A stretch of DNA of 24,000 nucleotides from an uncultured Clostridia bacterium (GCA_942493335.1 OW818693.1:1566644-1590643), one strand, 5' to 3'; positions 4,113-24,000 are shown, numbered from the stretch's first letter. Notes: a model not told the origin generated them from the sequence alone. Translations and numbers: made by a program.

Positions 4113-4123
4113 ATGGTTAGCAA

Positions 4124-4846: not shown

Positions 4847-4899
4847 ATGCTACCCCGTCAAAACCCATTGAAGGTATACGTCTATCCATAACAATCTCT

Positions 4900-7917: not shown

Positions 7918-7929
7918 TCGTACTCCTTC

Positions 7930-9180
7930 TCACATCGCCTTTTCAAAGGAAAGCAGTTTGTCTCTGTAGTATTCGTACTGCTGCTGCCGTGCTTCTATTT
8001 CGGCGGGCAGACCCGTCGTCAAATCATTGCAGAGCAAATCAAATTGGTCGAGGATGCGGACTATTTCTTCCTGAATGGGGAGAGGGGGAACGAGAACAGG
8101 TACGCGAGCTATAGAATTACTCATTAACTTTGGGTTGCCCATCCCGGGACTAACATAGTCCTTAACAATTGACTGGAGCCAATAGAACAGAAAACGGGTA
8201 CATAATTCTGTAGGGATAGACACGCTTAAGAGGCCACATACATTTGTAATGCTGAATTTCTCGTTCGAATGGAAGAATACAGACCCTGCATTTGCGCCAT
8301 CAGTCGTCCATGTGATAGATTCAAAGTCATAATCATAATTGTCAATGTATCCGAATATTCCGTTGTTCAATGTCTGCGATGAGTACACTGGATAAACTCC
8401 AGCATTAGCTCGAAGATAGTCTTTTGACATAACGCGCCCACGAGTTATCATACACATCTCGTCAAGATTTTTATACTCCACCCCATCCGGGCATAACTCA
8501 TCAATCAGTTTCCGAATCGTCCCAGTCTTCCTCTGCAGACCTTCTTCCGAAAAATCAAGCATCTTATTTTGATAATACTCATACTGCTGCTTGCGAGCCG
8601 TCCGCTCCGCGTTTAGCTCCGCCTTCAATTCCGTTGTCAACTCCGTGAATGTGTCGAGGATGCGGACAATTTCTTCCTGAATGGAGAGAGGGGGGATGGG
8701 GATTTCAATTGCCTTTATTGCTGGTACACTTGAATGAACGACTTTGCTCTTCACTTTACCAGCACTCTTATGTTTTTGTGCATCTGCTGTCGACAGGACA
8801 TACGAAAGATACTTAGGGTTCTGATTATGCTTCAGTACAACCATGTCGCCGCCAGCCAAACACTTTTCATGGCCAACGTACGCTGTTGACTTAGCGATAT
8901 CCGCCACGTTTTCTCCCGTTATAGCAAATAAAATGTCACCGTGCTCGAAATATTTCGGATTTTGAATGGCGGCTTCTTCAGTGTGTGAAACACACTCATC
9001 AAACCATATCCCATATGTTGTATAAATTTCCCCATACCGGACACAGGAAATCCCATATGGGACTACCTGGTCTCGCGTGATTCCCGAACCCCGATAAACA
9101 TCGGTAGCGATTTCTCCAATAGCTTTTATCTCTACCCCATCGGGGCACAGCTCCGCAATCAGTTCTTCAATCCTGCTCAT
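7930..9180 (-). CDS. hsdS: Type I restriction enzyme specificity subunit, two TRDs
   Basis: Two-fold internal architecture. Each half begins (I/L)xELCPDGVE(I/Y)K and ends with the conserved spacer (L/P)(S/P)IQEEIVRILD...QQYEYY. ATGA overlap with the hsdM stop (9177-9180). Confidence 0.95.
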   Translation of the reverse strand: MSRIEELIAELCPDGVEIKAIGEIATDVYRGSGITRDQVVPYGISCVRYGEIYTTYGIWFDECVSHTEEAAIQNPKYFEHGDILFAITGENVADIAKSTAYVGHEKCLAGGDMVVLKHNQNPKYLSYVLSTADAQKHKSAGKVKSKVVHSSVPAIKAIEIPIPPLSIQEEIVRILDTFTELTTELKAELNAERTARKQQYEYYQNKMLDFSEEGLQRKTGTIRKLIDELCPDGVEYKNLDEMCMITRGRVMSKDYLRANAGVYPVYSSQTLNNGIFGYIDNYDYDFESITWTTDGANAGSVFFHSNEKFSITNVCGLLSVSIPTELCTRFLFYWLQSIVKDYVSPGMGNPKLMSNSIARVPVLVPPLPIQEEIVRILDQFDLLCNDLTTGLPAEIEARQQQYEYYRDKLLSFEKAM

Positions 9181-10745
9181 GCTTCCACCTCGATTTCATC
9201 GATAATTGCCGCAATTTTGTCGCGAAGCTGCTGAGCCCTGGTGACGATTGTTTCAAGCCGTTCGTTCAATTCAGTAATATCAACCACTTCTCGCAAGTCT
9301 TTTTGCTCAACGTATGACGAGACGGATAGATTATAGCCATTCTCGGCAATCTGTTTGTTAGGGACAACCTTTACCATGTGTTCGACATCCTGACGGCCCC
9401 ACACAGCCTTCAGTATGTTTGCAATGTTATCATCTGTCAGCTTGTTGCCGTTGGTTACCTTAACGCATTCTTTAGAAGCGTCAACAAATACCGTCGTACT
9501 GGCCTTTTTGTTCTTCTTTAGGACCAAGATATTTGTGGAGATAGAGGTTCCATAAAACAAGGACCCTGGGAGCTGGATGTTTGCTTCGACATAATTGTTG
9601 TCAATCAGATACTGCCGAATCTTTTGCTCAGCTCCGCCCCGATACATAATTCCAGGAAAACAAACAATGGCCGCGACGCCGTTTTCCGACAGCCATGACA
9701 ACGAATGAAGAATGAACGCAAAATCAGCCTTTGATTTCGGGGCAAGCACTCCGGCGGGGGCAAATCTTGGGTCGTTGATAAGTGTTGGGCTCCCATCCCC
9801 AATCCAACGGACGCTGTAAGGTGGATTCGATACGATAGCTTCAAAGGGTTCTTCGTCCCAGTGGTGTGGCTCAGTCAGGGTGTCTCCATGCTTAATGTCA
9901 AACTTGTCAGGGCCGACATCATGCAGGAACATGTTAATTTTGCACAACTGGCTGGTGACCGACGAAATCTCCTGCCCGTAGAAACCCATTCTGACATTTT
10001 CCTTGCCAAGAATCTTGGCAAACTTCAGCAGAAGTGAGCCACTCCCGCATGCGGGGTCATAAACCTTGTTGACTTCCGTTCTTCCATATAGTGCCAAATG
10101 AGCCAGGAGCATCGATGCTTCAGGCGGCGTGAAATATTCTCCGCCCGATTTCCCTGCATTGGACGCATACATCCCCATAAGGTATTCGTATGCATCTCCA
10201 AACGCGTCAATGGAGCTGCCATGGCCGTATCCAAAATCCATTTCGCCGATGCCATTCATCAACTTGACGAGTGCAGAATTCCTACTCGCAACGGTTGCTC
10301 CGAGTTTGTTGCTGTTGACATCAAGTTCGTTAAACAATCCCTTAAAGTCTTCCTCACTCTCATAACCGCGAGCGGATGCCTCAATGGCGTCGAGAGCCTT
10401 TCCCAGCTTTTCATTGATGTTGGGGTCAGATGAAGCATTCTTACGGACATTGCAAAAGAGCTGGCTGGGAAGAATGAAGAACCCCTTTACTTGGACGAAT
10501 TCTTCGCGAGCCTGCTCTGCATCTTCATCGGAAATTTCAGAATACTTGAACCCAATATTCCCAGCAGCTTCTTCGCCCTTGTTGATATAGTTTTCTTGGT
10601 TCTCGGAAATATACCGATAGAACAACATCCCAAGAACATATTGCTTGAAGTCCCATCCATCCACGCTACCACGTAAATCGTTCGCAATTGCCCAAATCCC
10701 CTTGTACAGTTCGCTTCTTTCAACCTCACGTTTGTTTTCTGCCAT
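9177..10745 (-). CDS. hsdM: Type I restriction enzyme M subunit (N6-adenine DNA methyltransferase)
   Basis: SAM-binding motif I VYDPACGSGSLLL and catalytic motif IV IVSNPPYS. HsdM-type N-terminal helical domain. AAGGAG RBS. Confidence 0.95.
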   Translation of the reverse strand: MAENKREVERSELYKGIWAIANDLRGSVDGWDFKQYVLGMLFYRYISENQENYINKGEEAAGNIGFKYSEISDEDAEQAREEFVQVKGFFILPSQLFCNVRKNASSDPNINEKLGKALDAIEASARGYESEEDFKGLFNELDVNSNKLGATVASRNSALVKLMNGIGEMDFGYGHGSSIDAFGDAYEYLMGMYASNAGKSGGEYFTPPEASMLLAHLALYGRTEVNKVYDPACGSGSLLLKFAKILGKENVRMGFYGQEISSVTSQLCKINMFLHDVGPDKFDIKHGDTLTEPHHWDEEPFEAIVSNPPYSVRWIGDGSPTLINDPRFAPAGVLAPKSKADFAFILHSLSWLSENGVAAIVCFPGIMYRGGAEQKIRQYLIDNNYVEANIQLPGSLFYGTSISTNILVLKKNKKASTTVFVDASKECVKVTNGNKLTDDNIANILKAVWGRQDVEHMVKVVPNKQIAENGYNLSVSSYVEQKDLREVVDITELNERLETIVTRAQQLRDKIAAIIDEIEVEA

Positions 10746-11116: not shown

Positions 11117-12092
11117 TTACTCTTCAACCACGGGGAACACACGATTGAGTTCCGCCTGTGTTTCCGCGATATCTTTCCCAATGCCCGGCATCATCTCAAA
11201 CGACACCTTGAACAATGTATAGTCTTCTTCAACGACGTCATTGACGATAAGTTGAACTGAATTGAAAGTTTTTTGCAAATCGCTTGCCACATATTGTGGA
11301 GCGTCTGAGCTGATGCTGGTGGAGTAATCGACTGCAATTGGCGTTGATTGTTTTCAAGCGACTTTCATAGAGCATTGCTCCCTCAAGAATTGAAGCATCG
11401 GTATATGAAGTGGGATTTTCGATAACATCCATGTTATAGTCGCCATAATCACCGACGATGCTCTGATATCTGTTCGTGAAACACCCCATATCCTCAATAT
11501 ACGATGTTTTTTCCTCGGTGAACTGTAACCTCTTATCGCCCTCCAAGGCAACTTGAGATGTCGCACTTGGGGTGACTTCTTCTGAAGGAGAAGGCCATGC
11601 CTCTGATGGTGAAGGTAATACCGCTTAAGGAACTGAGGCAACTGGTGACACGGCTGTTTGTGACTCGATGGTCTTGGCATCACTGTCGCTTGATTGTTTG
11701 AAAAGACCCGTTTGAACCGGAATGAAGATGAAAATAAAACGACAATTGCAGTAACTATTAGCTTCACTTTGCGCTTTATACACTCATTTATCCAAAGTAA
11801 CAACAAGCCGAGCGGCCAGAACAGCACCAAGAAATGATTGCAATCCATGGTTTCTGATAGAACGGTTCTCTTCTGGGGGAGGCCGGTGGATATGATGCTG
11901 CATTATCATATACCTTGAGGTATCTGCATAGCAGTTGGTTGGACCATTCTGCGCCCACGCATACCATCCATGGCCTTGCCCATCTGAAGACATATTGTTA
12001 TTTGGTCCAGTATTCATGGGCCCATTCTGTTGGTCGTGCCTCGGTGTTCCATTGTCGCCTTCAATGTTCCACCCACTGTGATATGAATTCAT
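11117..12092 (-). pseudogene. Decayed gene (in-frame stops plus frameshift) for a membrane-anchored or secreted protein
   Basis: The start at 12092 has GAGG 8 nt upstream. That frame hits TGA at 11783-11781 and TAA at 11627-11625, yet stays protein-like on both sides (KQSSDSDAKTIESQTAVSPVASVP*AVLPSPSEAWPSPSEEVTPSATSQ...). After about 11350 the protein-like reading moves to another frame (KQSTPIAVDYSTSISSDAPQYVASDLQKTFNSVQLIVNDVVEEDYTLFKVSFEMMPGIGKDIAETQAELNRVFPVVEE*), which ends just before the terminator. TM-like text (HFLVLFWPLGLLLLWI, KLIVTAIVVLF) sits in a second frame. Confidence 0.45.
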
Positions 12093-12292
12093 ATTGCATA
12101 CCTCGTATGCAATATGCTAATCAGATATCGTAGAACAGTAACTCATAGCAGAGCGGACCAAGATGAACGTATTCGCTTGCCCATTATTGACATCGCTCTA
12201 CGATATGAATGCAACCAATAGAGCCCTATTCCATAAAGGAAGTGTGACCGCTATGCACTCCACCAGTAATACGTCAAATTTGAAGCAAACGC

Positions 12293-12958
12293 CTAATTTG
12301 TAACATTGCTAATATTTGTATCGGTAATTTCCCTATTTAGTTTGCTTTTTATCAAGTATACATACTGCGCAAACAGTTCTCTTGCATATGTTCTTGCGTA
12401 CTTGTCCATAGAATAAATCGATAAAACAATTGCAACAACTAGTGACAAACACACGTTAATTATGACACCTTTTAACACCACGACTACAATCAATATAAGA
12501 ATCAGAGAACTAGCAATCCCACGAGTAAGCCCATAACTCCCATTGAAGAAGTCTACTCTATCATGCAATGAAGCCGCTTTGATTTCGGCATAAATTTCTC
12601 TTGTGAATCCTATCCACGTTCTTTTGTTGACGAAGGGATTCTTCCCCTCCGACATAAAATGACTGTATATTGATTCTCTCCAATGCTCTGAGTAGGTATT
12701 GTTGCTCTCTATCATAATCCAGTCCGTTGGCCATCCTTTGCGGAACTTCCACCACATTTTCTCAAGAATATTCCCAACTGCTTGAACCAGATACCCGCAC
12801 GCATAGCTTATCACAAGCATAATACTAATGGCAGAAAACTGATTTTGGTTACTAAGCAACAGAGTGTTTACTTCCTGTATTACAAGGGATAGTCCAAATA
12901 ATGCCACCGCACCTGGGACAAATATACCCGCAAATTCGTAATAATCGAAGTTCCTCAT
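12293..12958 (-). CDS. Integral membrane protein, about 4 TM, unknown function (221 aa)
   Basis: I prefer ATG 12958 (GAGGTG 6 nt upstream) to the GTG at 12967. Two N-terminal TM segments (FAGIFVPGAVALFGLSLVI, ISIMLVISYACGYLVQAVG), a soluble core of about 90 aa, and two C-terminal TM segments (SSLILILIVVVVL, INVCLSLVVAIVLSIY). Confidence 0.6.
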   Translation of the reverse strand: MRNFDYYEFAGIFVPGAVALFGLSLVIQEVNTLLLSNQNQFSAISIMLVISYACGYLVQAVGNILEKMWWKFRKGWPTDWIMIESNNTYSEHWRESIYSHFMSEGKNPFVNKRTWIGFTREIYAEIKAASLHDRVDFFNGSYGLTRGIASSLILILIVVVVLKGVIINVCLSLVVAIVLSIYSMDKYARTYARELFAQYVYLIKSKLNREITDTNISNVTN

Positions 12959-13118
12959 AACAATCACCTCGTAATAAAGAAAATGCTTCTATACCCCATA
13001 CAGCGAAAGGTAAACTTTTCTTAACGGATATTACTTCGTTTCATATCAACTTCTCTCTGACTATATGAAGTCATTGGCGGCGAAACAACTTAAAATGATT
13101 AACTACCAGCATATATAA

Positions 13119-13388
13119 TCACTCAATATCCATTAACGGCAATGATAAAAGACCATTCTTGGAGTAGAATTCATCGTACTTATGGTGTGAAAATCTATAG
13201 TGACAAATATCGCTTTCATGATAGCATACTTTAACACCAATCCCAATAAATTCTACACATCTTCGAAGTGTTGCTGTATAATAGTTGTCGATAGAGTAGA
13301 TAAAAACACGTTCAAGAACTGCATCAATCGTCTCATTCAGGCTAAATGTACTTCTGCAAAAACGCACTCTGTGACCAAATGCTGACAC
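13119..13388 (-). CDS. Small hypothetical ORF (89 aa), doubtful
   Basis: GTG start with no SD. Divergent from the MBL gene. More protein-like than the antisense ORF 13200..13385, but unsupported otherwise. Confidence 0.25.
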   Translation of the reverse strand: MSAFGHRVRFCRSTFSLNETIDAVLERVFIYSIDNYYTATLRRCVEFIGIGVKVCYHESDICHYRFSHHKYDEFYSKNGLLSLPLMDIE

Positions 13389-13447
13389 TGATTTGACATA
13401 TACAAGAGAACAGCGGTTATCGAAATACCTAGAGGGGGGAATGCAAT

Positions 13448-14530
13448 ATGAGCCAAAGAATCACAATCTACCCGCTTGGAAACGCCGAAACCATTTTATT
13501 AGAACTCTCAAACAATAAGAGAATTCTCATAGACTATGCTGCAATGCGCACTGAAGAAGAGGGCGATAAGCGTTATGACATCACCACAACGCTAGTAAAA
13601 TTTAGTTCTTTCGACGTTGTTATGTTTAGTCATGCCCATGAAGACCACGTTAAGGGTGCGAAAGACTTTTTTGAGTTTGACCATGCCGAAAAATACCAGG
13701 GTAATGGGCGTGTGAAAATCAAGGAACTTTGGGTTTCATCTGCGTTTGTGCTTGATTCTAGTGTCAGCGAAGATGCTCGTGTTATTCGCCAAGAAGCACG
13801 CCACCGCATAAAGAAGGGCTATGGGATAAAAGTGTTCGCTGAGCCCGATAAACTCGACCAATGGCTTATTGATAATGACCTGTCAACTGACGATAGTGAA
13901 AACTCCATAATCCACGCAGGAACATTACTAAAAAATAAAGACCACTGCCTTGGAGATGAGCTTGATGTATTTGTCCATGCACCGTTCTCAGAGGACGCCA
14001 ATGAGAGTGAAGATAGAAATGACCCATCAATTGTTTTGCAGCTTAGGTTAGCAAATTTTTCGCGGACTACAACCATCTTCGTTACAGGCGATGCTCCACA
14101 TGAAATTCTTGATAAAATAGTCGAGCGTTCTGAAAAGGCCGGTAATGATAGCTATCTATACTGGGATTTATATGACATACCACACCATTGCAGTCATACC
14201 GGGCTATCAGACGAACGTGGAGAGAAAGTAACAGATACTTCTGAAAATATCAAACGCCTATTATCCAATTATTCTAGAAAGAACGCCGTCATGATAGCTT
14301 CATGTCGGGCGTTTTGTGATGTAGGTGACGACGACCCTCTACCGCCTCATTTTCAAGCAAAAGATGCTTATATAAAATATAGTGGCGAGAAGGAGTTCAT
14401 CGCGACAATGGAATACCCTAATAAAGTCAATCCTCAACCGCTGGTTTACGAAATCGATATGTTTGGAATAACCAAGAAAGTAGTCACGGCAAGCCCCATT
14501 ATAACTTCGCCAGCACCGAGGGCAGGATAA
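13448..14530 (+). CDS. Metallo-beta-lactamase-fold hydrolase (360 aa) with a Pro/Ser-rich C-terminal tail ending in Gly
   Basis: N-terminal ITIYPLGNAETILLEL..RILIDYA strand pattern. H62-A-H-E-D-H67 (HxHxDH zinc motif). No signal peptide. C-terminus ...KKVVTASPIITSPAPRAG*. GAGGGGGG RBS 8 nt upstream. The stop overlaps the next start (TAATG). Confidence 0.85.
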   Translation: MSQRITIYPLGNAETILLELSNNKRILIDYAAMRTEEEGDKRYDITTTLVKFSSFDVVMFSHAHEDHVKGAKDFFEFDHAEKYQGNGRVKIKELWVSSAFVLDSSVSEDARVIRQEARHRIKKGYGIKVFAEPDKLDQWLIDNDLSTDDSENSIIHAGTLLKNKDHCLGDELDVFVHAPFSEDANESEDRNDPSIVLQLRLANFSRTTTIFVTGDAPHEILDKIVERSEKAGNDSYLYWDLYDIPHHCSHTGLSDERGEKVTDTSENIKRLLSNYSRKNAVMIASCRAFCDVGDDDPLPPHFQAKDAYIKYSGEKEFIATMEYPNKVNPQPLVYEIDMFGITKKVVTASPIITSPAPRAG

Positions 14531-16791
14531 TGGAAACTGATATCACCACTCCAATGTGCGAGATAACAAGGCAAATCCTTGTTGTTTTGTGTAGCGGTGG
14601 CCCATATCAGGCTACCCTGCAATGCATTGAGAATGTGAGACATGATAATACCTTAACAGACATGCTCAAAATCGAATACAATATCGCAGGATTGTGTCAG
14701 TATCCAAAATATGAAATCCGCCGAGTCGAGCCAATTACTATTTGGGTACAAGATGGACAGTTGCCGATAGTCGAAGCAAGAGAAGATTTCCCGATAGTGC
14801 CTCATCTTGTTGTCAATCGTGATGGCATGAAGACGCTCTGTTATACCGATTTCTCATATTCTGAGATAAAGCACAGACTGAACGGACAATTTATTGTGGA
14901 GTGCATCAACGAGTGGTTTGTAAGAACCGCTCGTGATGAACTTCACCGAGATGACCAGCCTCTTGAACCTTTCTTTTTCGGGGTCCAAGACATGATTGTC
15001 GTAAAGAAGCAGTTTTTTCATAATTATTGTGCAAAATTCAAAGAAATTCAACAAAACAATCGTCTGACATTACAGCAAGTCCCCGACGGTGTCAACGGGA
15101 CAGGGGTATACCTTTACGTTGTTATTAGGTTGAATATCCCACCTAGTAAAGATAACATTATCCATCATCCTCCGAAGTCATTAGGAGATTTATTTGCTCT
15201 TTTTTCATCGAAGCACATCGAACAGCAGCTTATGACCGAATTGTGGGAAATTCTCAAAATAAGGCTTAATAAGAAAAATTTTCAATCTACATTCGTCAAT
15301 ATGTCTTTTCTGTTTTGTTTACCCTGCATCATCTTTTTGCATATCCCACAAAGAAGAAAAAAAACAAGTATTATCGAAACATCAGATAATCGTGTGTTTA
15401 TAACCAACGGTCACAGATTCGGCGATATTCTCAATGATTTTGGTATCCATCGACAGATAATTGTTGGCGAAAAAAAAAGTCAAGAATATAAGTTAACCAG
15501 TACCGGCAAAAATTATCACGGCGAAAACATCAGCATCAGTCAACTCAATCTTCACTTTGAAACAACGCCTCCACTTGCCAGAATATATAGCGGAATCAAT
15601 GAAGGCTATCAACATAAATATTTCGTACTCATCGGTGCAGGAGCCTTAGGCTCTCAGGTGTATGTTAATTGTTTACGCTCAGGTTTTGGGAAATGGGCAA
15701 TTATTGATTTCGATGTTTTTTTGCCCCACAACCTTACTCGGCATGTTCTTTCACAATCTTCAGTTGGACAACCGAAGGCAACAGAGCTAGTGCAATATGC
15801 TAATTCTGTCATTGAGAATCCTGAAGTATGCGCTTATGTAGCTGACGTTCTTGACCATCATAGCGCCGACATTCTTATGACCTTAGCAACAGCCGATGTG
15901 ATAGTAGACGTTTCCACATCGGTCGCGGTGGAACGAATGCTTGCCATAGACACGAAAACAAAAGCACGATGTATTTCGCTCTTCTTAAATCCACGAGGCG
16001 ATTGTCTTGTTATGCTTTGTGAAGACTCGGAGCGAACCATTACACTCGACCAATTGGAGATGCAGTTGAACGCAATACTGATTAACGAGACTGATTTGGA
16101 GAATTTCTATTGTTTGCCAACAACTATAGCATACGCTACATCTTGTCGCGACATAACTACTACTATTCCGCAAGAAAACATTGCATTAACTGGCGCCGTC
16201 GCAAGCAAAGAGTTGAAATTAGCTCAAGAAAACATGTCATCAAATATCGTTGTCTGGAAAATAAGCAACGATGGAATTGCAGCACAAAGATATGCTGGCG
16301 AACGATGGCATGAAATATCTTGTGGTGATTGGCGAGTGTTGATGCGCTACTCCTTGCTGCATTCTCTCCAAGAAAAGAGAATCGAACGTCAACCGAATGA
16401 AACCGGCGGTGTTCTTATTGGTAATTATGACTTTTCACGTAAGATAATTTATGTCGTCGACATGATTTTTTCACCAAGTGACAGTATTGAGGTCCCTTCC
16501 TCATATATCCGAGGCTGCAAAAACTTACCTGAGCAGATAAATCAAATATCAAAAAGAACATTTAACGGTCTTTTCTATATCGGGGAATGGCATAGCCACC
16601 CCAGCCAGAGCACTGCGATGAGCTGTGCTGATGAAAAGCTTCTCCGCACAATTAGCGATGTTTGTAAAGCCAACTGTCTACTCGGTGCTATGATTATTTG
16701 CGGGAGTAATAGCAATTTATCTTTTTATCTTCGTGATGATACTATGGTTTTTTCTGAGACGTTCATATTCGACAATACTGGACAACGATAA
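14530..16791 (+). CDS. E2(UBC)-like / E1 (ThiF-MoeB) / JAB triple-domain protein, 753 aa
   Basis: E2-like: DFPIVPHLVVNRDGMKTLCYTD, a His-x11-Cys pattern like HPN...G.iCl of UBC folds, with candidate Cys104 (nt 14839-14841). E1: YFVLIGAGALGSQVYVNCLRSGFGKWAIIDFDVFLPHNLTRH (GxGxxG plus D.D...NL.R). Candidate E1 Cys539 (ATSCRD). JAB: E624 (NETGGVLIG) and H688-S-H690-x7-S698-x2-D701 (EWHSHPSQSTAMSCAD), the canonical JAMM spacing. Confidence 0.9.
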   Translation: METDITTPMCEITRQILVVLCSGGPYQATLQCIENVRHDNTLTDMLKIEYNIAGLCQYPKYEIRRVEPITIWVQDGQLPIVEAREDFPIVPHLVVNRDGMKTLCYTDFSYSEIKHRLNGQFIVECINEWFVRTARDELHRDDQPLEPFFFGVQDMIVVKKQFFHNYCAKFKEIQQNNRLTLQQVPDGVNGTGVYLYVVIRLNIPPSKDNIIHHPPKSLGDLFALFSSKHIEQQLMTELWEILKIRLNKKNFQSTFVNMSFLFCLPCIIFLHIPQRRKKTSIIETSDNRVFITNGHRFGDILNDFGIHRQIIVGEKKSQEYKLTSTGKNYHGENISISQLNLHFETTPPLARIYSGINEGYQHKYFVLIGAGALGSQVYVNCLRSGFGKWAIIDFDVFLPHNLTRHVLSQSSVGQPKATELVQYANSVIENPEVCAYVADVLDHHSADILMTLATADVIVDVSTSVAVERMLAIDTKTKARCISLFLNPRGDCLVMLCEDSERTITLDQLEMQLNAILINETDLENFYCLPTTIAYATSCRDITTTIPQENIALTGAVASKELKLAQENMSSNIVVWKISNDGIAAQRYAGERWHEISCGDWRVLMRYSLLHSLQEKRIERQPNETGGVLIGNYDFSRKIIYVVDMIFSPSDSIEVPSSYIRGCKNLPEQINQISKRTFNGLFYIGEWHSHPSQSTAMSCADEKLLRTISDVCKANCLLGAMIICGSNSNLSFYLRDDTMVFSETFIFDNTGQR

Positions 16792-16915
16792 AGACAAATG
16801 TCAACTTCATAAATACGACTCAGTGTAGAAATGGAGAGACGAATGGTGCTGGTGGTTTATAAAACATTGCAACGAAAGGGTTCCATCATTCGAGCTTGTA
16901 TCACCTGTCTTGATA

Positions 16916-17251
16916 CTAGCGAATTCGTTTGTTCTTCCACTCTGCTGCTTCCGCTAGGACAAAACGATGTAAGATGCGTGAAACAATGTCAGCTTTATCG
17001 AAACCGACGGCGTTTCTTGTTCCATTCTCTTCGTAACATTCCCAAGTTATCCTATTCTCGGTTTGAAGCCAAATTAACGATAAATTCACGTTATCCTTTC
17101 GTTCAACTTCAGCCTCAATTAAGCCTTCAATCGTTTCTTCATACACGCGCCAGAAGAAGGAAATCTCTCCTTGAACCTGCACATATATTTCGTCCCACAC
17201 GTTATTGAAGATTCGAGTCGTTCCCAGAAAGCAACCCATTTGTTGTTGCAC
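16916..17251 (-). CDS. Hypothetical acidic protein (111 aa), possibly frameshifted at its 5' end
   Basis: The protein-like ORF (RIFNNVWDEIYVQVQGEISFFWRVYEETIEGLIEAEVERK...) has no good SD at its own start. A well-placed start (ATG 17330, GAGGTGGG 2 nt upstream) opens a different frame that stops at 17204-17202, which suggests a 1-nt frameshift. Confidence 0.35.
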   Translation of the reverse strand: MQQQMGCFLGTTRIFNNVWDEIYVQVQGEISFFWRVYEETIEGLIEAEVERKDNVNLSLIWLQTENRITWECYEENGTRNAVGFDKADIVSRILHRFVLAEAAEWKNKRIR

Positions 17252-17361
17252 AAGGCCGTCGTATTACGCTGTTGGCTATAAACTTACACGCCCTGTTTGC
17301 AACTGTTGCAATGATTCGTTCTTTATACATGACCCACCTCGCCAGAACGTAGTGCTTCTCG

Positions 17362-17669
17362 ACACCAAGCATAGCGGAGTATAGTCAAATCTCGCACGAA
17401 CGGCACACTCCCTTGTTCAACCTTCCAAAACCACCATGCTCCTTCATGTCTCCCTCATCGCACATTTCTCCACATTTTTCGCATTCATACCACCTGACCC
17501 AAAACGAATCAAACTGCATGTCACTAGATGACGCATCAAAGTGTTGGCGCATCTCAGCCTTTGCCTGTTCATGCTCAAAATCATCGTTATGATGTCCTAT
17601 GCCACCACATCGCGTCATTTGAGGCTCTCGCTGAGCATATTGTCGACGAATAGCTTGAAATGTCTCTGT
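17362..17669. repeat. Direct repeat copy A (3' two-thirds of the zinc-ribbon gene plus about 20 nt of downstream flank)
   Basis: Alignable by eye with 22962-23268 in the same orientation. Roughly three quarters of positions are identical, for example gagtatagtcaaatctc, caaccttccaaaa, caccatgctccttcatgtct, gctgagcatattgtcgacgaat. Confidence 0.7.
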
Positions 17670-17867
17670 AGCCTTCTTGGAATCGAGCTTCTCCTGTTCA
17701 TCATCTTCAGCACTCAAGATTGCGTCATTGTCAAGCCGGTCTATTACCGTCGATGCGAGTCGTTCTTGCTCACGGGCTTCACGTTCTTTTGACTCGTGAA
17801 GCCTCTGCTCAAGTTCTTTATTCAGCCGGTCTCTTTCCCGCTTATCTCGTTCTGCTTTTTCTACCAA
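17385..17867 (-). CDS. Coiled-coil plus C-terminal zinc-ribbon protein (paralog A), 160 aa
   Basis: The charged N-terminus (ERDKRERDRLNKELEQRLHESKEREAREQERL) is predicted coiled-coil. C-terminus WYECEKCGEMCDEGDMKEHGGFGRLNKGVCRSCEI (CxxC...CxxC). TTG start. The reading frame stays open upstream without a start, and a 55-codon ORF with a good SD (ATG 18025, ends 17861) is in another frame, so the 5' end is possibly frameshifted. Confidence 0.6.
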   Translation of the reverse strand: MVEKAERDKRERDRLNKELEQRLHESKEREAREQERLASTVIDRLDNDAILSAEDDEQEKLDSKKATETFQAIRRQYAQREPQMTRCGGIGHHNDDFEHEQAKAEMRQHFDASSSDMQFDSFWVRWYECEKCGEMCDEGDMKEHGGFGRLNKGVCRSCEI

Positions 17868-18069
17868 GAGCCGCTCGCGTTCACGAACAAGAGTCGAATG
17901 AACTTCATCATACCCTCTCGTCCATTCTGACTCCCAGCAACTACATCAAGCCTGAATGCCTTTTGGGCCTTTGTCTCCTGTACTTCAACAACCTGCTCTT
18001 GCTTAACAACTTTGTTCTTGTTCATTTGGTTCCCTCAAACTCTCTTTTAGTTCACCTTATTTTGTGACC

Positions 18070-18258
18070 GTTACAAGTTTGAGAGCAAGAGCGTTTTGTG
18101 TATGGCTTTCTGTACAGTTAGTTTATCAGTTGTAATTCTCACTTTGTGTGTTTTGTACGGTAACTTTTTCTTTGTGCTTTGATGTATAGTAACTGCAAAC
18201 ATCTTGAAAGAAACCATTTGTAACCGTGGCAGAGAAGGTGTAGACTTTTGGTGGTTAC
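18070..18258 (+). promoter_or_regulatory. Array of five GTAAC/GTTAC-containing sites upstream of the ATP-grasp operon (candidate operators)
   Basis: GTTAC at 18070 and 18254. GTAAC at 18160, 18189 and 18220. When oriented alike they read T(T/A)GTAAC(C/G). About 0.5 occurrences would be expected by chance in about 240 nt. TTTGT(G/A) is also reiterated about 7 times. Confidence 0.3.
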
Positions 18259-18299
18259 TAATATTGGCAATGAAATCAGTTGTGTTGCAGGAGGTTTGT

Positions 18300-18908
18300 A
18301 TGAATCAAAAGAATCCGCTGTTCTCGTATCGAACTGCTTGTCCTGATAACATTCCGGTGACAGAACAAGAGGTAGCCAGACACTACGACAGCAGAACCGG
18401 TCTTTGGTATGAGGCGGGTGGTGTTCCCGTTATTGAGAAATTCGTGAACTCACGTGTGAGAGATAAGAGGGCTGAAACCCACACAACAGACTCCCGTGAG
18501 GGTATCGACAGAGGCGAAACATCCTCGCCTCCGCCTCGTTATCTGAACGATACTCGAAGAACACAAGCTGGACCAGACGAAACCCTTATAACCGAAACCA
18601 GAGAAAGCATTGACCGAAGTGAAGGTTCTGTTCACTACGAAGACTTTGTGGCTCTAAAAGGACCTGATGAAACGCTGATTACAAAGACAAGGGAAGGTAT
18701 CGACACAAGTGAATCCTCTTCCTTTGTCCCATTTGTTGCAGAAGAATACAAAATCAAGGCATCCGGCTCTGCTGAAACGCTTATAACGCGTTCGAGAGAA
18801 GGTATTGACACAACCGAAAGAAGCAACGAAATACATGACTATATGTTTCAAACCATCCAAACATTCACGCGTGAATCGACCGACAGAAACGAGGAACAAT
18901 CGGAATGA
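18300..18908 (+). CDS. Multi-core graspetide-type precursor protein (202 aa) with five repeats of a T/S- and E/D-rich motif
   Basis: I prefer ATG 18300 (AGGAGG 7 nt upstream) to the TTG at 18204. Repeats: AETHTTDSREGIDRGE, DETLITETRESIDRSE, DETLITKTREGIDTSE, AETLITRSREGIDTTE, QTIQTFTRESTDRNEE. ATGA overlap with the ATP-grasp gene start. Confidence 0.75.
   Translation: MNQKNPLFSYRTACPDNIPVTEQEVARHYDSRTGLWYEAGGVPVIEKFVNSRVRDKRAETHTTDSREGIDRGETSSPPPRYLNDTRRTQAGPDETLITETRESIDRSEGSVHYEDFVALKGPDETLITKTREGIDTSESSSFVPFVAEEYKIKASGSAETLITRSREGIDTTERSNEIHDYMFQTIQTFTRESTDRNEEQSE
18471..18896 (+). repeat. In-frame coding repeats (5 units; 18471-18518, 18576-18623, 18666-18713, 18771-18818, 18849-18896)
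   Basis: Consensus (D/A)ET(L/H)(I/T)Tx(T/S)RE(G/S)IDx(S/T/G)E. The three central units share GAAAC(C/G)CT(T/G)AT(A/T)AC at the DNA level. Spacing is 30-35 codons. Confidence 0.8.
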
Positions 18909-19849
18909 TAACGTGTCCGAAGGTTCTCTTCGTAACAAATCGGGAGGATTTCGCCATCGACTTCCTCCTATATCGGTTCAAAGACAAAGGGATACCCTAT
19001 CTACGTATCAACTCTGAGGATATCACGGAATGTGATATAACCTGGGAATACGGTAAAGAAGTAACCTTTTCATATAGCGGAGACTCTTATGATTTAGAGG
19101 CTGTCAAATCGGTATACTTTCGTCGCGCTCCTTCTATCTTTCCACAAGGGGTTGACCCGACGGACACTCCTTTTCTTAGGGGTGAAAGACGTGATTTCTT
19201 CGAAGGGTTGTATATGACCCTTGAAGCTAGATGGGTGAATCCTCTTTTCAGCACCTACATAGCCGAAAAGAAACTATATCAGCTCAACGTAGCACGGCAA
19301 GTTGGCTTTACCATCCCAAAATCGATAGTCACAAATAGACCACAAGACATCCTCAGCTTTCTTTCGAACGGCCCCAGTATCATGAAACCTATCTCGCATG
19401 GTCTTCAGGTGAAGGTTGGCGAAGCTTACTCAATCTATACATCGGTTATCCAAGCAGCCGATTTCAAGGACCTTGAGAACACCTTTGAAGCACCCGTTCT
19501 GGTACAAACAAGAATTCCAAACACTTGTGATATAAGGGCTACAGTCGTTGGCAACAAGGTATTCGCTGTCGAGATACACCAAGAAGGCGAACCAAATGTT
19601 GATTGGAGAGTGCTCGAAGCAACCAAGCGTTATGTTCTTCACGAATTACCGCCTGATATCATATCCATGATGCTTAACCTGCATAAATCATTAGGGCTTG
19701 TCTACTCAGCCTTCGATTTCATCCTAACACCAGACGGAGAGTATGTGTTCCTTGAAACGAATCCTGCTGGAGAATGGGTTTGGATAGAAAGAGAGACAGG
19801 TCTGCCTATAGCAGAAGCCTTGTGCTCGGAGTTGATTGATGAAAAATAA
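18905..19849 (+). CDS. ATP-grasp peptide macrocyclase (MdnC/MvdD-like, RiPP maturase family), 314 aa
   Basis: VLFVTNREDFAIDFLLYRFKDKGIPYLRINSED (N-terminal precursor-binding domain pattern). DIRATVVGNKVFAVEI...VDWR. GLVYSAFDFILTPDGEYVFLETNPAGEWVWIERETGLPIAEALCSELI closely matches the FLE.NP.GqW.W.E..TG.pI signature of microviridin-type ligases. Confidence 0.9.
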   Translation: MITCPKVLFVTNREDFAIDFLLYRFKDKGIPYLRINSEDITECDITWEYGKEVTFSYSGDSYDLEAVKSVYFRRAPSIFPQGVDPTDTPFLRGERRDFFEGLYMTLEARWVNPLFSTYIAEKKLYQLNVARQVGFTIPKSIVTNRPQDILSFLSNGPSIMKPISHGLQVKVGEAYSIYTSVIQAADFKDLENTFEAPVLVQTRIPNTCDIRATVVGNKVFAVEIHQEGEPNVDWRVLEATKRYVLHELPPDIISMMLNLHKSLGLVYSAFDFILTPDGEYVFLETNPAGEWVWIERETGLPIAEALCSELIDEK

Positions 19850-20861
19850 GCAAAAAACTGTAGATTTGGGTTCCACACAAACTGAGGTGCAACCAAAAAT
19901 CGCTATGGCTGAGAAAAAGCCAATGGTAGCAGCAACAGAACAGAAAGACCCGGTTTGGCAAGACGAGTATCTATCGCCGAACATAGAAAGTAAACCACTA
20001 ACGGTCAAACTAATTTGGAAAAGTATAAAAGACTTTTTCATATTTCTTCTTCATGCAATATCCCCACATGCATATCCAACGCCACCAAAACTAGCTCTCC
20101 CCGATATAACATCAGATGATGAGCATTTAGCCTTCGATATGTGTAAGTCGCTGTATGAAGCATCACATTCAAGAATCGATAATCTTGAAGATAAATCGAT
20201 GAAGTTGCTCCCTTATATCACAGCCCTCTTTGCCTTCTATTCATTTGCTTATCTAAACATAGCGAATATCCCCACAAAGGTATCTTTGTTGACAGCAATG
20301 CTTTTTTTGCTTCTATCTATCATCATTTCCTTTCGTTGTGTTAGCGTAAAAGGGCGTAGAGCCATATTCATCCCTACCATATACGATATGGACGAAAAAC
20401 CACCAAAAGAGCTTTTTAAGAGAAACACAATATCAAAGGGTTACCTGAAATCTGCAATCATAAACCAGTCCGTGGCTGATAACACCGCTGATATCCTACG
20501 CGCTGCAAGAAGCACCTTAACACTCGCTCTGATTATTGGTTTAGTCGGTTGTATGGTTGGTGTTATAGGATTGTTTGGTGCAGAAAAAACTAGTCAGGAC
20601 GTAAAAATCCTTCAACAAAATGAGACAACCATATTGGTGAAAAGCGTTCAAGATGAGGCAATAGCCATACGAGGGTTAACCGAAAGAATAACAAGCAAGT
20701 ATGAGATACAACAGGACAGCGAGAATGGCAAGCTCGAGCGAAAGAACCAGGAGTTGTCAGATGCCCTAGATACCACGACCAAGAAGGTCGATAAACTAGA
20801 AAGTGAACTCAAAAACCTCTTGGAAAAACTCAACACAGAACCTGTTCCAGCAACAAAGTAA
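19839..20861 (+). CDS. Multi-TM membrane protein with C-terminal coiled coil (340 aa)
   Basis: ATG 19839 overlaps the ATP-grasp 3' end by 11 nt, with GGAG about 9 nt upstream. TM segments LLPYITALFAFYSFAYLNI, VSLLTAMLFLLLSIIISF, LTLALIIGLVGCMVGVIGLFG. The segment before TM1 (SHSRIDNLEDKSMKLL) is reminiscent of DUF5706/SLATT-type TM effector N-termini (weak). C-terminal heptad-like ELSDALDTTTKKVDKLESELKNLLEKL. Confidence 0.75.
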   Translation: MKNKQKTVDLGSTQTEVQPKIAMAEKKPMVAATEQKDPVWQDEYLSPNIESKPLTVKLIWKSIKDFFIFLLHAISPHAYPTPPKLALPDITSDDEHLAFDMCKSLYEASHSRIDNLEDKSMKLLPYITALFAFYSFAYLNIANIPTKVSLLTAMLFLLLSIIISFRCVSVKGRRAIFIPTIYDMDEKPPKELFKRNTISKGYLKSAIINQSVADNTADILRAARSTLTLALIIGLVGCMVGVIGLFGAEKTSQDVKILQQNETTILVKSVQDEAIAIRGLTERITSKYEIQQDSENGKLERKNQELSDALDTTTKKVDKLESELKNLLEKLNTEPVPATK

Positions 20862-20886
20862 GGGTATGCGGCGAAGCCGCACACCC
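20862..20886 (+). terminator. GC-rich hairpin immediately after the operon stop codon
   Basis: gggtatgcggc-gaa-gccgcacaccc. 11-bp stem with one mismatch and a 3-nt loop. The trailing T-tract is poor. Confidence 0.5.
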
Positions 20887-21398
20887 TCAATTGCATATTC
20901 TTGCTGTCCTCCTGTTCACCAACCAGATACATCAAATCTGTATCTTAAGAAGAATGTTTCTGTCGCTGAGTTGAAAGCCATATCTGCTAAAGCATTTGGG
21001 TTTATCTCGAAGTCCCAATCCTGCTTGCCTATTATGATGTATACGTATATATCTATCGTACCAGTTAAGAAATATCTTCTGTGGTCAAGCCTCATCCAAG
21101 CAGAAAAGCGTGCATTACTCATCTATTGTTCAGACTCAATGGCCATATCGTCTACCAACACCCATTTATAGCCATCACTTGTCTACCTCATATGATATAC
21201 TGCTCCATAGAGTAATGTAATAAAATCTCAGAATTTGTATATGATGACTAGATATTGATATACAATCAGAGACGTTTCGGAAGCTATTCGAGGACAAGAA
21301 GTTCTACGAAGCCGTCATGGGAGCTGTTGGGAGAGATGTGTATAAGTATTTGATGTCATAGTAACAAAGAGGCTCACTAATTATAGGAGGAGGCAGAA

Positions 21399-22367
21399 AT
21401 GAGAAAAGCACTTTGCGTCGGAATTGACAATTATGAAACAATCAACGACCTGCATGGATGTGTAAATGATGCGAACGGAGTAAAGGCTGTGCTTGACCGG
21501 AACGGTGATAGCACATTGAATTTTCAGACCCGCTTGATGTGTTCGACAAGTGAGAACTCGTATATAAGAAGAGGCGATTTGAAGGACGCAATTGAAGAGT
21601 TATTCAGAAGTGAATCTGAGATAGCGATTCTGTATTATGCAGGGCATGGCTCATATGATGAAAATGGCGGCTATTTATGCACTAGCGAAGTGAGTCGTTC
21701 TGATGACGGTTTATCTCTTGACGATATTATGGGAATAGTGTCACGGTCAAAAGCTCAAAACAAAGTGATTATACTCGATAGTTGCCATAGTGGGCTTGTG
21801 GGAACATCAAATTTGATGCCAAATTATTCTGTATTGCATAACGGAACGACTATTCTGGCCGCATGTGATGAAAAGCAATACGCATCGGAGGCAATGGGGC
21901 ATGGTGTATTTACGACTTTGCTTATAGAAGCGCTTTATGGCGGCGCAATGAATCTTTTAGGCGAGGTGTCACCTGGTAGCATATACTCATACATTGACCG
22001 CTCACTTGGTGGCTGGGAGCAACGTCCAGTGTTTAAGGCAAACATCAAATCCTTTGTGTCCCTAAGAAAAAATTCTCCTCCCATTCCAATAGAAGAATTA
22101 CGGCGCATAAAGGAATTTTTTCCCTCCCCATATGAGGAGTTCTCACTTGACCCCACATACGAGCCGGACAAACACGAGGCTGATATGCAGGATGTAAACA
22201 AAGAACACGAAGCCGTATTCGCAATACTGCAAAAGTATGTTAAGCTGAATTTGGTTGTGCCTGAAGGCGCAGAGCATATGTACTATGCCGCATTAAACCA
22301 CAAGTCTTGCAAATTAACTTCACAAGGTCAGCATTATTGGAATCTTGTTACAAAAGAAACAATATGA
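21399..22367 (+). CDS. Caspase-like (peptidase C14) protease with an uncharacterised C-terminal domain, 322 aa
   Basis: KALCVGIDNYETINDLHGCVNDANGV..., ILYYAGHGS (catalytic His) and VIILDSCHSG (catalytic Cys) form the caspase/metacaspase His-Cys dyad. Residues from about 200 to 322 have no motif I recognise. AGGAGGAGG RBS. Confidence 0.9.
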   Translation: MRKALCVGIDNYETINDLHGCVNDANGVKAVLDRNGDSTLNFQTRLMCSTSENSYIRRGDLKDAIEELFRSESEIAILYYAGHGSYDENGGYLCTSEVSRSDDGLSLDDIMGIVSRSKAQNKVIILDSCHSGLVGTSNLMPNYSVLHNGTTILAACDEKQYASEAMGHGVFTTLLIEALYGGAMNLLGEVSPGSIYSYIDRSLGGWEQRPVFKANIKSFVSLRKNSPPIPIEELRRIKEFFPSPYEEFSLDPTYEPDKHEADMQDVNKEHEAVFAILQKYVKLNLVVPEGAEHMYYAALNHKSCKLTSQGQHYWNLVTKETI

Positions 22368-22424
22368 AATCACCGACTCACCAAGAGGCAAAGGGACAAA
22401 TCAACGAAAGGAATGGTATAGACA

Positions 22425-22811
22425 ATGGTGAAGAAGAACGTATTCATTAGTCATCGCTGGGATTATGAAGAAGACTACGAAAAAATTAGTGCTGTGCTAG
22501 ACCGGACAAAATACGACGTGTCAAATCGCTCGGTTGAGAGTTCGGACCCTCTAGTTGGCACAAAAAAAGAAGTTACAGTCGCTATAAAGGCGAAGATTGA
22601 CAGTGCAAGTGTTGTGCTTGCACCCGCTCGTCCAGCAGCGGTCACATCTGGAAGCATGGGGCGTAAGGAAATTGATTATGCCGTAAGCAAAAAAAAGAAA
22701 ATCATAGCTGTCGATACTGGGACCACGCAATCCGTAGCTAGCTATTGGAAAGAAAACGACATCCCTGTAGTCACATGCCGTAAAGACAGTGTCGAGAATG
22801 CAATAGGATAG
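22425..22811 (+). CDS. TIR-like domain protein (DUF1863 / ThsB-like), 128 aa
   Basis: KNVFISHRWDYEEDYEKI start typical of TIR-like/DUF1863. IDSASVVLAP...SGSMGRKEIDYAVSKKKKIIAV matches the i..s..vivl...S.w...Ei..a...gkpiigv pattern. Lies 57 nt downstream of the caspase-like gene. Weak SD. Confidence 0.6.
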   Translation: MVKKNVFISHRWDYEEDYEKISAVLDRTKYDVSNRSVESSDPLVGTKKEVTVAIKAKIDSASVVLAPARPAAVTSGSMGRKEIDYAVSKKKKIIAVDTGTTQSVASYWKENDIPVVTCRKDSVENAIG

Positions 22812-22842
22812 TATTCTATAATGTCCGCAAAGGCATAATTTA

Positions 22843-22882
22843 GCCCTTAATAGAGCTTGATTACAAGCAAGCTCTATTGAGG
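22843..22882. terminator. Long hairpin between convergent genes (likely bidirectional terminator)
   Basis: cccttaatagagcttg (22843-22858) and caagctctattgaggg (22867-22882) form a 16-bp stem with one mismatch and an 8-nt loop. The T-tract is weak. Confidence 0.55.
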
Positions 22883-22961
22883 GTTAAATTCGTTGCCGCA
22901 GTCACCCATGACATTCAAGAAGAAAGTATATACATGCCATTCCAGGCATGAAGATTTTCAG

Positions 22962-23268
22962 CACCAAAGATAGCAGAGTATAGTCAAATCTCACACGACC
23001 GGCATACCCCCCGATTCAACCTTCCAAAATCACCATGCTCCTTCATGTCTTCCTCGTCGCACAGCGCTCCACACTTTTCGCACTCAAACCATCTGACCCC
23101 AAATGAGTCATACTGTTTCTCAACAGATGAGACGTCAAAGTATTGTCGCATCTCTGTCTTTGCGATTTCATGTTCGACATTATCGTCATGGCGTCCTTTG
23201 ACAATTCGTCGTATGATTTGTGATTCACGCTGAGCATATTGTCGACGAATGGCACGAAATGTCTCAGT
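22962..23268. repeat. Direct repeat copy B (see 17362-17669)
   Basis: Same orientation as copy A. Homology ends at the codons for (T)ETF(Q/R)AIRRQ at the upstream side, and about 20 nt past the stop codon at the downstream side. Confidence 0.7.
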
Positions 23269-23274
23269 TTCCAT
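22984..23274 (-). CDS. Zinc-ribbon protein (paralog B), about 96 aa from ATG 23274
   Basis: METETFRAIRRQYAQRESQ...WFECEKCGALCDEEDMKEHGDFGRLNRGVCRSCEI is collinear with residues 67-160 of the 17385..17867 product. The longer ORF-track start (23367) adds non-protein-like sequence. Confidence 0.6.
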   Translation of the reverse strand: METETFRAIRRQYAQRESQIIRRIVKGRHDDNVEHEIAKTEMRQYFDVSSVEKQYDSFGVRWFECEKCGALCDEEDMKEHGDFGRLNRGVCRSCEI

Positions 23275-23467
23275 CGTGAGAAAAATGGGGGCGCTTCTTT
23301 TTCGTCCTGATAACAGCGAGCATGTCGTTACCGCAGAAAGCGCATGAACAATTGCATCTACGACCATACTCTTCGGGTTTTAGGTCAGCGATATAGACGA
23401 TTTTCCCATTCCTTTTCGCAAAAGGATTTTTAAGGTCACCCATATCCCGATTCTCCATATAGCGCAA
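23264..23467 (-). CDS. Short Cys-rich ORF resembling only the N-terminal zinc finger/HFxH segment of CoiA-like proteins (probable truncated remnant)
   Basis: GKIVYIADLKPEEYGRRCNCSCAFCGNDMLAVIRTKKKRPHFSHDGN* resembles C.C..C...l......pHFaH. It stops right at the repeat boundary and no nuclease domain follows. TTG/ATG start ambiguous, weak SD. Confidence 0.35.
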   Translation of the reverse strand: MRYMENRDMGDLKNPFAKRNGKIVYIADLKPEEYGRRCNCSCAFCGNDMLAVIRTKKKRPHFSHDGN

Positions 23468-23482
23468 ATGTTGAACTGCATA

Positions 23483-24000
23483 TCACCATCGACGCCGAAA
23501 AATCTGTTCGTCTTGCAAGAACTCTTTCAGGCCCATATTCAGTTTCCCAAGTAGCTCATCATCCTTCTCATTCAACGGATTCATCCAATTCGCCTTATCC
23601 TTTGCCCATTCGATGTATCTATGCATTGCGTGATTATCTGTGTCACCATATCCGCCCAGCACACGAATGTACTCATATACTATCAGTGATGCTTGATAAT
23701 TTTCTGCATCAGCAAGAAGCTGCTTTACTTTTTTCACCTCGGCACGTTGCCGTTCCCTAAGTTCAGCGTCCTTCACGGCCTTCATTTGCGCGTCTTCTTC
23801 TCGTTGAATACGTTCAGCACGAGCGATTTCAGCCGCCTGGACAGCCGCCATCACGTTGATGACTATCTCGCCAACCTTTTCTTCGAGCGCTTGGCACTTT
23901 GTATCATTCCACGAACGGAACTTGGAATAGAAGTCCCCTATCCAGAACATGAGCTCTCCTGAATACTCCAAGACCTGCTCCAATGGAGGACTCTGTTCTT
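23483..24000 (-). CDS. Hypothetical coiled-coil protein, 5' end probably beyond the window
   Basis: The frame is open to nt 24000 upstream of the TTG at 23983. Charged helical segment AEIARAERIQREEDAQMKAVKDAELRERQRAEVKKVKQLLADAENY. No family recognised. Confidence 0.55.
   Translation of the reverse strand, partial: EQSPPLEQVLEYSGELMFWIGDFYSKFRSWNDTKCQALEEKVGEIVINVMAAVQAAEIARAERIQREEDAQMKAVKDAELRERQRAEVKKVKQLLADAENYQASLIVYEYIRVLGGYGDTDNHAMHRYIEWAKDKANWMNPLNEKDDELLGKLNMGLKEFLQDEQIFRRRW

Follow-up and report, generated by a model that had tools for sequence, protein, structure and literature searches.

Paired direct repeats in a Clostridia defence island: probable relics of two broken copies of a rare CoiA-like zinc-ribbon gene

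What do two diverged direct repeats, bracketing a pair of accessory gene modules, tell us about how a bacterial defence island was put together? The question is raised by a 24,000-nucleotide (nt) stretch from the genome of an uncultured Clostridia bacterium (GCA_942493335.1, OW818693.1:1566644-1590643), which we call the window and in which positions are counted from its first letter. The original prediction took the repeats for the 3' portions of paralogous zinc-ribbon genes and thought their layout compatible with gain or exchange of cassettes by recombination between copies of a conserved backbone gene. Our analysis favors a different history. The repeats are the 3' ends of two broken, diverged copies of one gene, which we name Z, and were probably left as relics of island assembly in which displacement of a resident Z end was followed by an internal deletion.

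A repeat search of the window paired 17356-17655 with 22955-23254 (300 nt, 79% identity), and the best ungapped local alignment extends the pair to the following limits.

17356..17679, minus strand: repeat copy A, the final ~97 Z codons with their stop codon, plus a 29-nt 3' flank (ungapped alignment)
22955..23278, minus strand: repeat copy B, Z codons 308-401 with their stop codon, plus a 29-nt 3' flank

Identical bases fill 254 of the 324 columns (78.4%), giving a score of 184 against 12.7 ± 1.5 (maximum 18) for 200 shuffles. The predicted repeats (17362-17669 and 22962-23268, with about three quarters of positions identical) are thus real, and pairwise alignment places them within 10 nt of where they had been put. 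The copies lie in the same orientation and contain open reading frames (ORFs) at 17385-17867 and 22984-23274; over their 94 shared codons the proteins are 71% identical, as expected of the paralogous peptides that had been proposed, and the two are homologous gene 3' portions. The homology reaches 29 nt beyond the stop codon, with identity at 23/29 positions (score 17 against 8.1 ± 1.2 for shuffles, maximum 14), and gapped similarity for ~35 nt more beyond this flank is statistically not established. On the 5' side of the repeat block there is no A/B homology (score 8 against 8.3 ± 1.3 for shuffles). The longest identical run between the copies is 23 nt. The genome is a single 4.9-Mb contig, and a whole-genome search found no copies other than A and B. 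An assembly artefact was ruled out: the genome is in one contig, and assembly would not mix up copies with no more than 78% identity. An integron-type cassette array was also ruled out, because the repeats are coding sequence with 29 nt of flank; there are two of them in the genome.

The gene to which these 3' portions belong was found by a profile hidden Markov model search, using the A/B alignment, of 1.84 billion representative proteins. It returned 37 matches, two of them at E ≤ 1e-10. One, P0003 (401 amino acids, aa), is the full-length gene Z; the repeat profile matches its residues 307-401 with an E value of 2.6e-40. The other, P0004, is a 114-aa relative with little beyond the zinc-ribbon domain. 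A second intact member, P0040 (399 aa), is 56% identical to P0003. A word-indexed protein search with the 160-aa copy A product gave no match. The Z protein runs from a CoiA_N-like zinc finger with an HFxH box, through a middle region of ~160 residues and a long coiled coil, to a C-terminal domain of ~95 residues that ends in a CxxC...CxxC ribbon. An AlphaFold2 model of P0003, made from a 7-row alignment and used for secondary structure only, has low confidence (mean predicted local distance difference test score, pLDDT, 58; predicted template modelling score 0.32); it places a long helix at 221-280 and ribbon strands at 365-396, and models the middle region at pLDDT 30-45 only.

Z resembles the CoiA family (CoiA_N PF25164, CoiA_nuc PF06054, DUF7828 PF25165) in its N-terminal Cys-rich finger followed by the HFxH box, and P0003 residues 1-95 match an annotated CoiA family protein of Thermoanaerobacterium plasmids by tblastn (30.5% identity, E value 4e-6). 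Unlike CoiA, it carries a coiled coil and a C-terminal zinc-ribbon domain, no CoiA nuclease domain was detected in its middle (PF06054 gave no match in P0003 or P0040 at E ≤ 0.1), and its scores of 20-22 bits fall under the Pfam threshold. Searches of Z with Pfam, PADLOC and NCBIfam gave nothing above threshold; the sub-threshold Pfam matches were DUF7128 for copy B and DUF7828 for a 67-aa ORF upstream of it, with DUF7828 scoring 22.2 bits on the Z stub in the window and 20.3 bits on P0003 against a cut-off of 25.7. Three distant relatives (P0007, P0011 and P0025) share the C-terminal ribbon and pass the CoiA_N threshold, and P0011 passes that of CoiA_nuc too. In distant proteins the coiled coil and ribbon are preceded by clear CoiA_N or CoiA nuclease domains, or in other cases by a UvrD-type helicase; being carried behind different enzymes, the module is a mobile C-terminal appendage of nucleic-acid enzymes.

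Searching the genome with P0003 and P0040 by tblastn recovered Z in three pieces: codons 1-58 (23443-23270), codons 308-401 (23268-22987) and codons 217/225-401 (17936/17918-17388). Codons 59 to ~216 had no match anywhere in the genome in the same searches. Neither copy is therefore intact, and both are gene remnants of the Z family (P0003/P0040 type). The pieces and the joints that bound them are as follows.

17388..17936, minus strand: Z fragment A, codons ~217/225-401 (coiled coil and zinc ribbon), 5'-truncated (tblastn with P0003 and P0040)
17937..17950, no strand: joint A, the breakpoint at the 5' end of Z fragment A, beyond which the DNA is unrelated (Z alignments and tblastn)
22984..23274, minus strand: ORF B, 96 aa (sequence reading and alignment)
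23268..23269, no strand: joint B, the joint of an internal Z deletion, out of frame (blastn colinearity with contig L030 and the joint sequences)
23270..23443, minus strand: Z N-terminal fragment, codons 1-58, a CoiA_N/DUF7828-like zinc finger (81% identity to P0003 residues 1-58; ORF 23264-23467)
23483..24000, minus strand: 3' part of a partner gene for a 426-aa protein, which runs on to 24763 (translation; 84.7% nt identity to L030 together with the Z 5' end)

What had been described as a truncated CoiA-like ORF, at 23443-23270, is 81% identical to P0003 residues 1-58, and residues 308-401 of the same protein align with copy B. The contig that carries P0003 (L030) shows how the pieces were once connected: by blastn its positions 5667-7206 are colinear with window 24807-23268 at 84.7% nt identity, taking in the 426-aa gene, the spacer that separates it from Z and the initial 176 nt of Z, after which the match breaks at 23268 and picks up again at L030 7952-8221 (window 23268-22999). 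The 745 nt missing from the window (L030 7207-7951) correspond to codons 59-307. This length is not a multiple of three, so the upstream frame meets TGA two codons on, ending in ...HFSHDGN, and the ORF at 23264-23467 stops 11 nt inside the start of copy B. ORF B in turn takes its ATG (23274-23272) from Asp-Gly codons of the upstream Z stub; it encodes 96 aa from METETF, or 127 aa from an upstream out-of-frame ATG. The joint shares one base with both parental sides (1 nt of microhomology), and this single shared base points to an illegitimate deletion. Joint B is thus an illegitimate deletion joint inside one gene, and the CoiA-like ORF and copy B are two ends of that gene, not neighboring genes. 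The abrupt end of the ORF at copy B had been read as a recombination junction; it is a real rearrangement joint (23268-23274), but one that lies within a single gene.

At copy A, P0003 aligns from residue ~225 to 401, the charged region included. The tblastn matches cover 225-401 of P0003 (62% identity) and 217-399 of P0040. Similarity to Z ends abruptly upstream of ~17936, with a stop codon and unrelated sequence beyond, and the remaining ORF (17385-17867, 160 aa) has a TTG start at 17867. The breakpoint near 17937 is a second illegitimate joint. An annotator would do best to mark the ORFs at 17385-17867, 22984-23274 and 23264-23467 as pieces of a single gene family rather than as three separate genes.

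The divergence between the two 3' ends tells something of what they were before they were broken. Synonymous divergence (pS) between A and B is 0.49, nonsynonymous divergence (pN) 0.145 and dN/dS 0.20 (0.14-0.16 in the two conserved thirds), and all four ribbon Cys are kept in both. The low dN/dS and the kept zinc ligands point to two once-functional alleles and argue against a recent in-place duplication of a dead fragment; most of the divergence therefore accumulated under purifying selection, as two working genes. At conserved positions A has 8 derived substitutions and B has 4, a difference that is not significant and gives no order of decay.

Could both short ORFs be functional now, as stand-alone zinc-ribbon proteins that act as paralogous regulators or adaptors, each serving the adjacent defence module? 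The frames exist (160 aa from the TTG at 17867 and 96 aa from the ATG at 23274, the latter possibly coupled to the 58-codon stub, whose stop its ATG overlaps as in coupled genes), the overall dN/dS is low with every zinc ligand kept, P0004 consists of little more than the same domain, and the fusions to different enzymes elsewhere suggest that coiled coil and ribbon act as an independent module. Yet copy B would begin partway along a helix predicted for the intact protein (residues 295-326, in the low-confidence model) and has no Shine-Dalgarno-like sequence, copy A needs a TTG start within a formerly internal coiled coil, and a low dN/dS is equally expected if the divergence mostly accrued as full-length genes. 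We consider this reading unlikely.

Two comparisons with other loci bear on the history of the copies. Either copy has its nearest relative in the other, ahead of L030 and of a further locus, L031, and both have a 3' flank that is missing from L030. The 426-aa gene shows a synonymous divergence from L030 of 0.37 and the Z stub one of 0.44, against 0.60-0.68 for the Z 3' parts, a jump which suggests that in one of the lineages recombination had a breakpoint inside Z. L030 is no nearer to one 3' end than to the other (0.62 and 0.60), so that the distances do not tell whether A or B was the stub's historical partner.

The mutual closeness of A and B and their common flank would also suit a tandem duplication that happened in place long ago, of Z alone or of the 426-aa gene with Z, followed by an independent insertion of cargo between the copies and by two separate deletions. 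Such a history takes three or four events at least, and a tblastn search found no second 426-like sequence in the genome. Moreover, the A-B pS of 0.49 is no smaller than the divergence of the 426-aa gene from that of the unrelated L030 (0.37), so the copies are as old as the transfers of this gene block between hosts. A tandem origin therefore appears very improbable to us.

Whether Z is a conserved backbone gene, as originally supposed, can be judged from its distribution. The two proteins at E ≤ 1e-10 were all that 1.84 billion yielded, and the copy B protein had no relative in 60 related genomes; only its 40-residue ribbon was matched, in unrelated larger proteins of two genomes that are more distant members of the same class. 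The window from 12000 to 24000 had no DNA match among 55 same-family genomes. Scans with the A/B alignment pattern found no close locus, with only distant zinc-ribbon matches in genome and metagenome contigs and none in viral contigs; megablast against E. coli genomes gave no match, and blastn against plasmids gave a single match, a 134-nt caspase stretch described below. A locus with both Z copies was found in none of the related genomes, same-family genomes, plasmids, or genome, viral and metagenome contigs searched. Being very rare and absent from all related genomes sampled, Z is not a conserved backbone gene, and this part of the original prediction has to be given up.

Z travels instead with the 426-aa gene, the two making up a small mobile block. 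They occur side by side again on L030, a contig whose remaining genes are not close to those of this genome, and this unrelated background argues that the block moved between hosts. On a metagenome contig (L032, ERZ9284106 NODE_8180, positions 3-2983) a 426-aa homologue with 62% identity comes immediately after a Tn7-like TniQ/TnsD gene, and the N-terminus of a Z gene comes next. An opposite-strand gene call there, at 2761-2982, is probably spurious because the Z N-terminus occupies that stretch; the contig's final ~50 nt seem to be unrelated sequence. Members of the wider 426-aa family are common, mostly without Z, and one of them adjoins the cyclase of a CBASS (cyclic oligonucleotide-based antiphage signalling system); the 426-aa protein itself belongs to no family in Pfam, PADLOC or NCBIfam. 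Downstream of the intact Z on L030 (8414-12587) are three small genes, an M78 peptidase/helix-turn-helix (HTH) pair, Multi_ubiq and then a DUF6791-ThiF (E1-like) gene. The last two form a ubiquitin-like conjugation module near Z that shares no homology with the window's 6A-MBL operon next to copy A (see below).

Do the repeats still serve, or did they recently serve, as sites of homologous recombination at which the bracketed cassettes are gained, lost and swapped? Direct-orientation copies do bracket two self-contained modules, the 426-Z block is mobile, and the change in divergence from L030 inside Z suggests that Z was once a recombination site. Efficient RecA-dependent exchange, though, needs roughly 25-30 bp of uninterrupted identity, and the longest perfect run here, 23 nt in copies 78% identical, is near or below that. 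Both joints (23268/9 and ~17937) are illegitimate and lie at or outside the edges of the homology, a collapse between the repeats would still leave a Z without its middle, and the gene is very rare and missing from all related genomes sampled. No recombinase was found with the repeats in a Pfam scan of neighboring proteins, which showed no integrase domain; integrase models were not run on the genome. Ongoing or recent exchange between the copies is accordingly a poor candidate, which we rate as very unlikely, and the repeats as they stand today seem to be relics whose divergence makes them poor substrates for homologous recombination. Of the layout's supposed compatibility with cassette gain or exchange, gain can be kept, and of exchange between the copies there is no sign, given the illegitimate joints and the 23-nt run.

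The history that we prefer, that of displacement and then internal deletion, can be laid out as a sequence whose order we infer; it is the likeliest and, with two events, the most economical. A resident 426-Z block would have received a second, diverged Z allele together with its downstream neighbors, the caspase-TIR pair and the graspetide cluster described below. The incoming DNA would have been anchored by homology in the 426-aa gene and the Z 5' region and joined illegitimately inside the resident Z, a combination known as homology-facilitated illegitimate recombination. The resident Z 3' end, now copy A, would thereby have been pushed to the far side of the new cargo. Later, the 745-nt internal deletion would have broken the incoming Z, leaving the stub and copy B.

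Several points weigh against this history. Its intermediate forms, an intact Z beside the cargo or a 426-Z block without cargo at this site, were found in no relative. The dN/dS of 0.2 and the intact Cys ligands also fit small proteins that still function, and P0004 might be a natural stand-alone form. The jump in synonymous divergence amounts to ~3.5 standard errors by our own estimate but comes from few sites (~36-59 per Z segment), and the contrast within Z lies partly in the low-complexity coiled-coil region. Two other courses of events fit the same data: tandem arrival of two Z-bearing modules followed by two deletions, and a single insertion with two illegitimate ends.

The interval between the repeats was predicted to hold two accessory modules, and both were recovered.

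18204..20861, plus strand: cargo module 1, a graspetide-type cluster (Pfam RimK and ATPgraspMvdD matches, repeat family D2, ORFs)
21399..22811, plus strand: cargo module 2, a caspase-like protease (21399-22367) and a small TIR protein (22425-22811) (Pfam, PADLOC)

The graspetide-type cluster consists of a precursor gene with four repeats in 50-nt units (18204-18908), an MvdD/RimK-like ATP-grasp gene (18905-19849) and a membrane protein gene (19836-20861). In the second module, the caspase matches Pfam Peptidase_C14 at 1.1e-17 and the TIR protein TIR_2/ThsB_TIR; the PADLOC caspase and ThsB models match as well. A stand-alone TIR-caspase pair in the opposite gene order (TIR then caspase) occurs on the small, defence-rich Thiolapillus brandeum plasmid pTBH13 (L038:4617-6016), and the 134-nt caspase match mentioned above, at 71% identity, is to this plasmid. 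In the pTBH13 stretch examined the annotation shows no Z-like gene, and no sequence search for Z was made there. The gap that separates the TIR gene from copy B's 3' flank contains a 26-nt inverted repeat (22837-22890, 88% complementary, 2-nt loop), which lies just beyond the A/B homology and is probably a bidirectional terminator for the converging genes.

Beyond copy A, an operon at 13448-16791 converges on Z fragment A. It encodes a metallo-beta-lactamase (MBL)-fold protein and a Prok-E2_A/ThiF/Prok-JAB triple fusion (6A-MBL operon). Between the two, on the minus strand at 16916-17251, is a 111-aa ORF with no family match and no counterpart downstream of the L030 Z. Farther left, a type I restriction-modification (R-M) operon (HsdM at 9177-10745, HsdS at 7930-9180 and HsdR at 4900-7917) stands beside a gene for an AbiEi-like protein (3468-4112), and these genes, at 3468-10745 together, confirm the defence-island context. 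A 224-aa ORF on the minus strand at 12293-12967 has a weak PADLOC match (E value 1.1e-5) to Csx27, an accessory membrane protein of type VI-B CRISPR systems; no cas genes were seen nearby.

The locus offers a base-resolved example of how a defence island is built up, in which two illegitimate joints and two stranded 3' ends record at least two rearrangements. These would have brought the graspetide cluster and the caspase-TIR pair beside the 6A-MBL system. It also defines a rare uncharacterized pair, the 426-aa protein and Z, that moves between unrelated hosts and stands behind tnsD in one Tn7-like element; mobility and position make the intact pair a candidate cargo or defence module. One may speculate further that the 426-Z block, and especially the diverged Z 3' end, is a recurrent handle by which Tn7-like cargo regions and defence islands capture modules through one-sided homologous anchoring, with stranded Z 3' fragments marking each capture in the manner of the orphan modules of Rhs, CDI and T6SS loci. 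We think this improbable; if true, it would extend the displacement mechanism to the assembly of defence islands.

Defence systems abound in the cargo regions of Tn7-like transposons (Benler et al. 2021, PMC8649781), and the present island has features of such a region: tns genes on both sides, the tnsD-426-Z order on L032, and defence neighbors (type I R-M, 6A-MBL, caspase-TIR). A complete Tn7-like tnsA-tnsB-tnsC-tnsD operon lies ~5 kb to the right of the window (L003:7003-13520, ~29003-35520 in window numbering), and just to the left (L004:14540-17239) are a TniQ/TnsD gene (576 aa) and a TnsD fragment (192 aa) with no adjacent tnsABC. Unlike an established cargo region, the island has no identified transposon ends (inverted end repeats, sought by k-mers, turned up only as short matches, at 86 kb on the right and 46 kb on the left), and the intact tnsABCD operon faces the other way, so that its membership is not established. 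It may be the cargo of a decayed Tn7-like element beside an intact one.

A closer parallel to the repeats themselves is found in type VI secretion system (T6SS) effector-immunity, Rhs and contact-dependent inhibition (CDI) loci, where homology-facilitated illegitimate recombination is taken to be the source of orphan 3' fragments (Kirchberger et al. 2017, PMC5361080, citing de Vries & Wackernagel 2002 and Meier & Wackernagel 2003). There, as proposed here, an incoming allele and its neighbors are anchored by a conserved 5' region and the resident 3' end is displaced downstream, which leaves direct repeats of 3' portions flanking the new genes and an illegitimate joint on one side. The present case differs in its gene, a CoiA-like zinc-ribbon gene in a defence island and not a polymorphic toxin, and in its cargo, two unrelated, convergently oriented modules in place of an immunity gene. 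It differs too in its course, with one displacement, reconstructed without intermediates, and an incoming copy that would later have been broken. The remnant pair is of a kind known from polymorphic-toxin loci, here met in a defence island.

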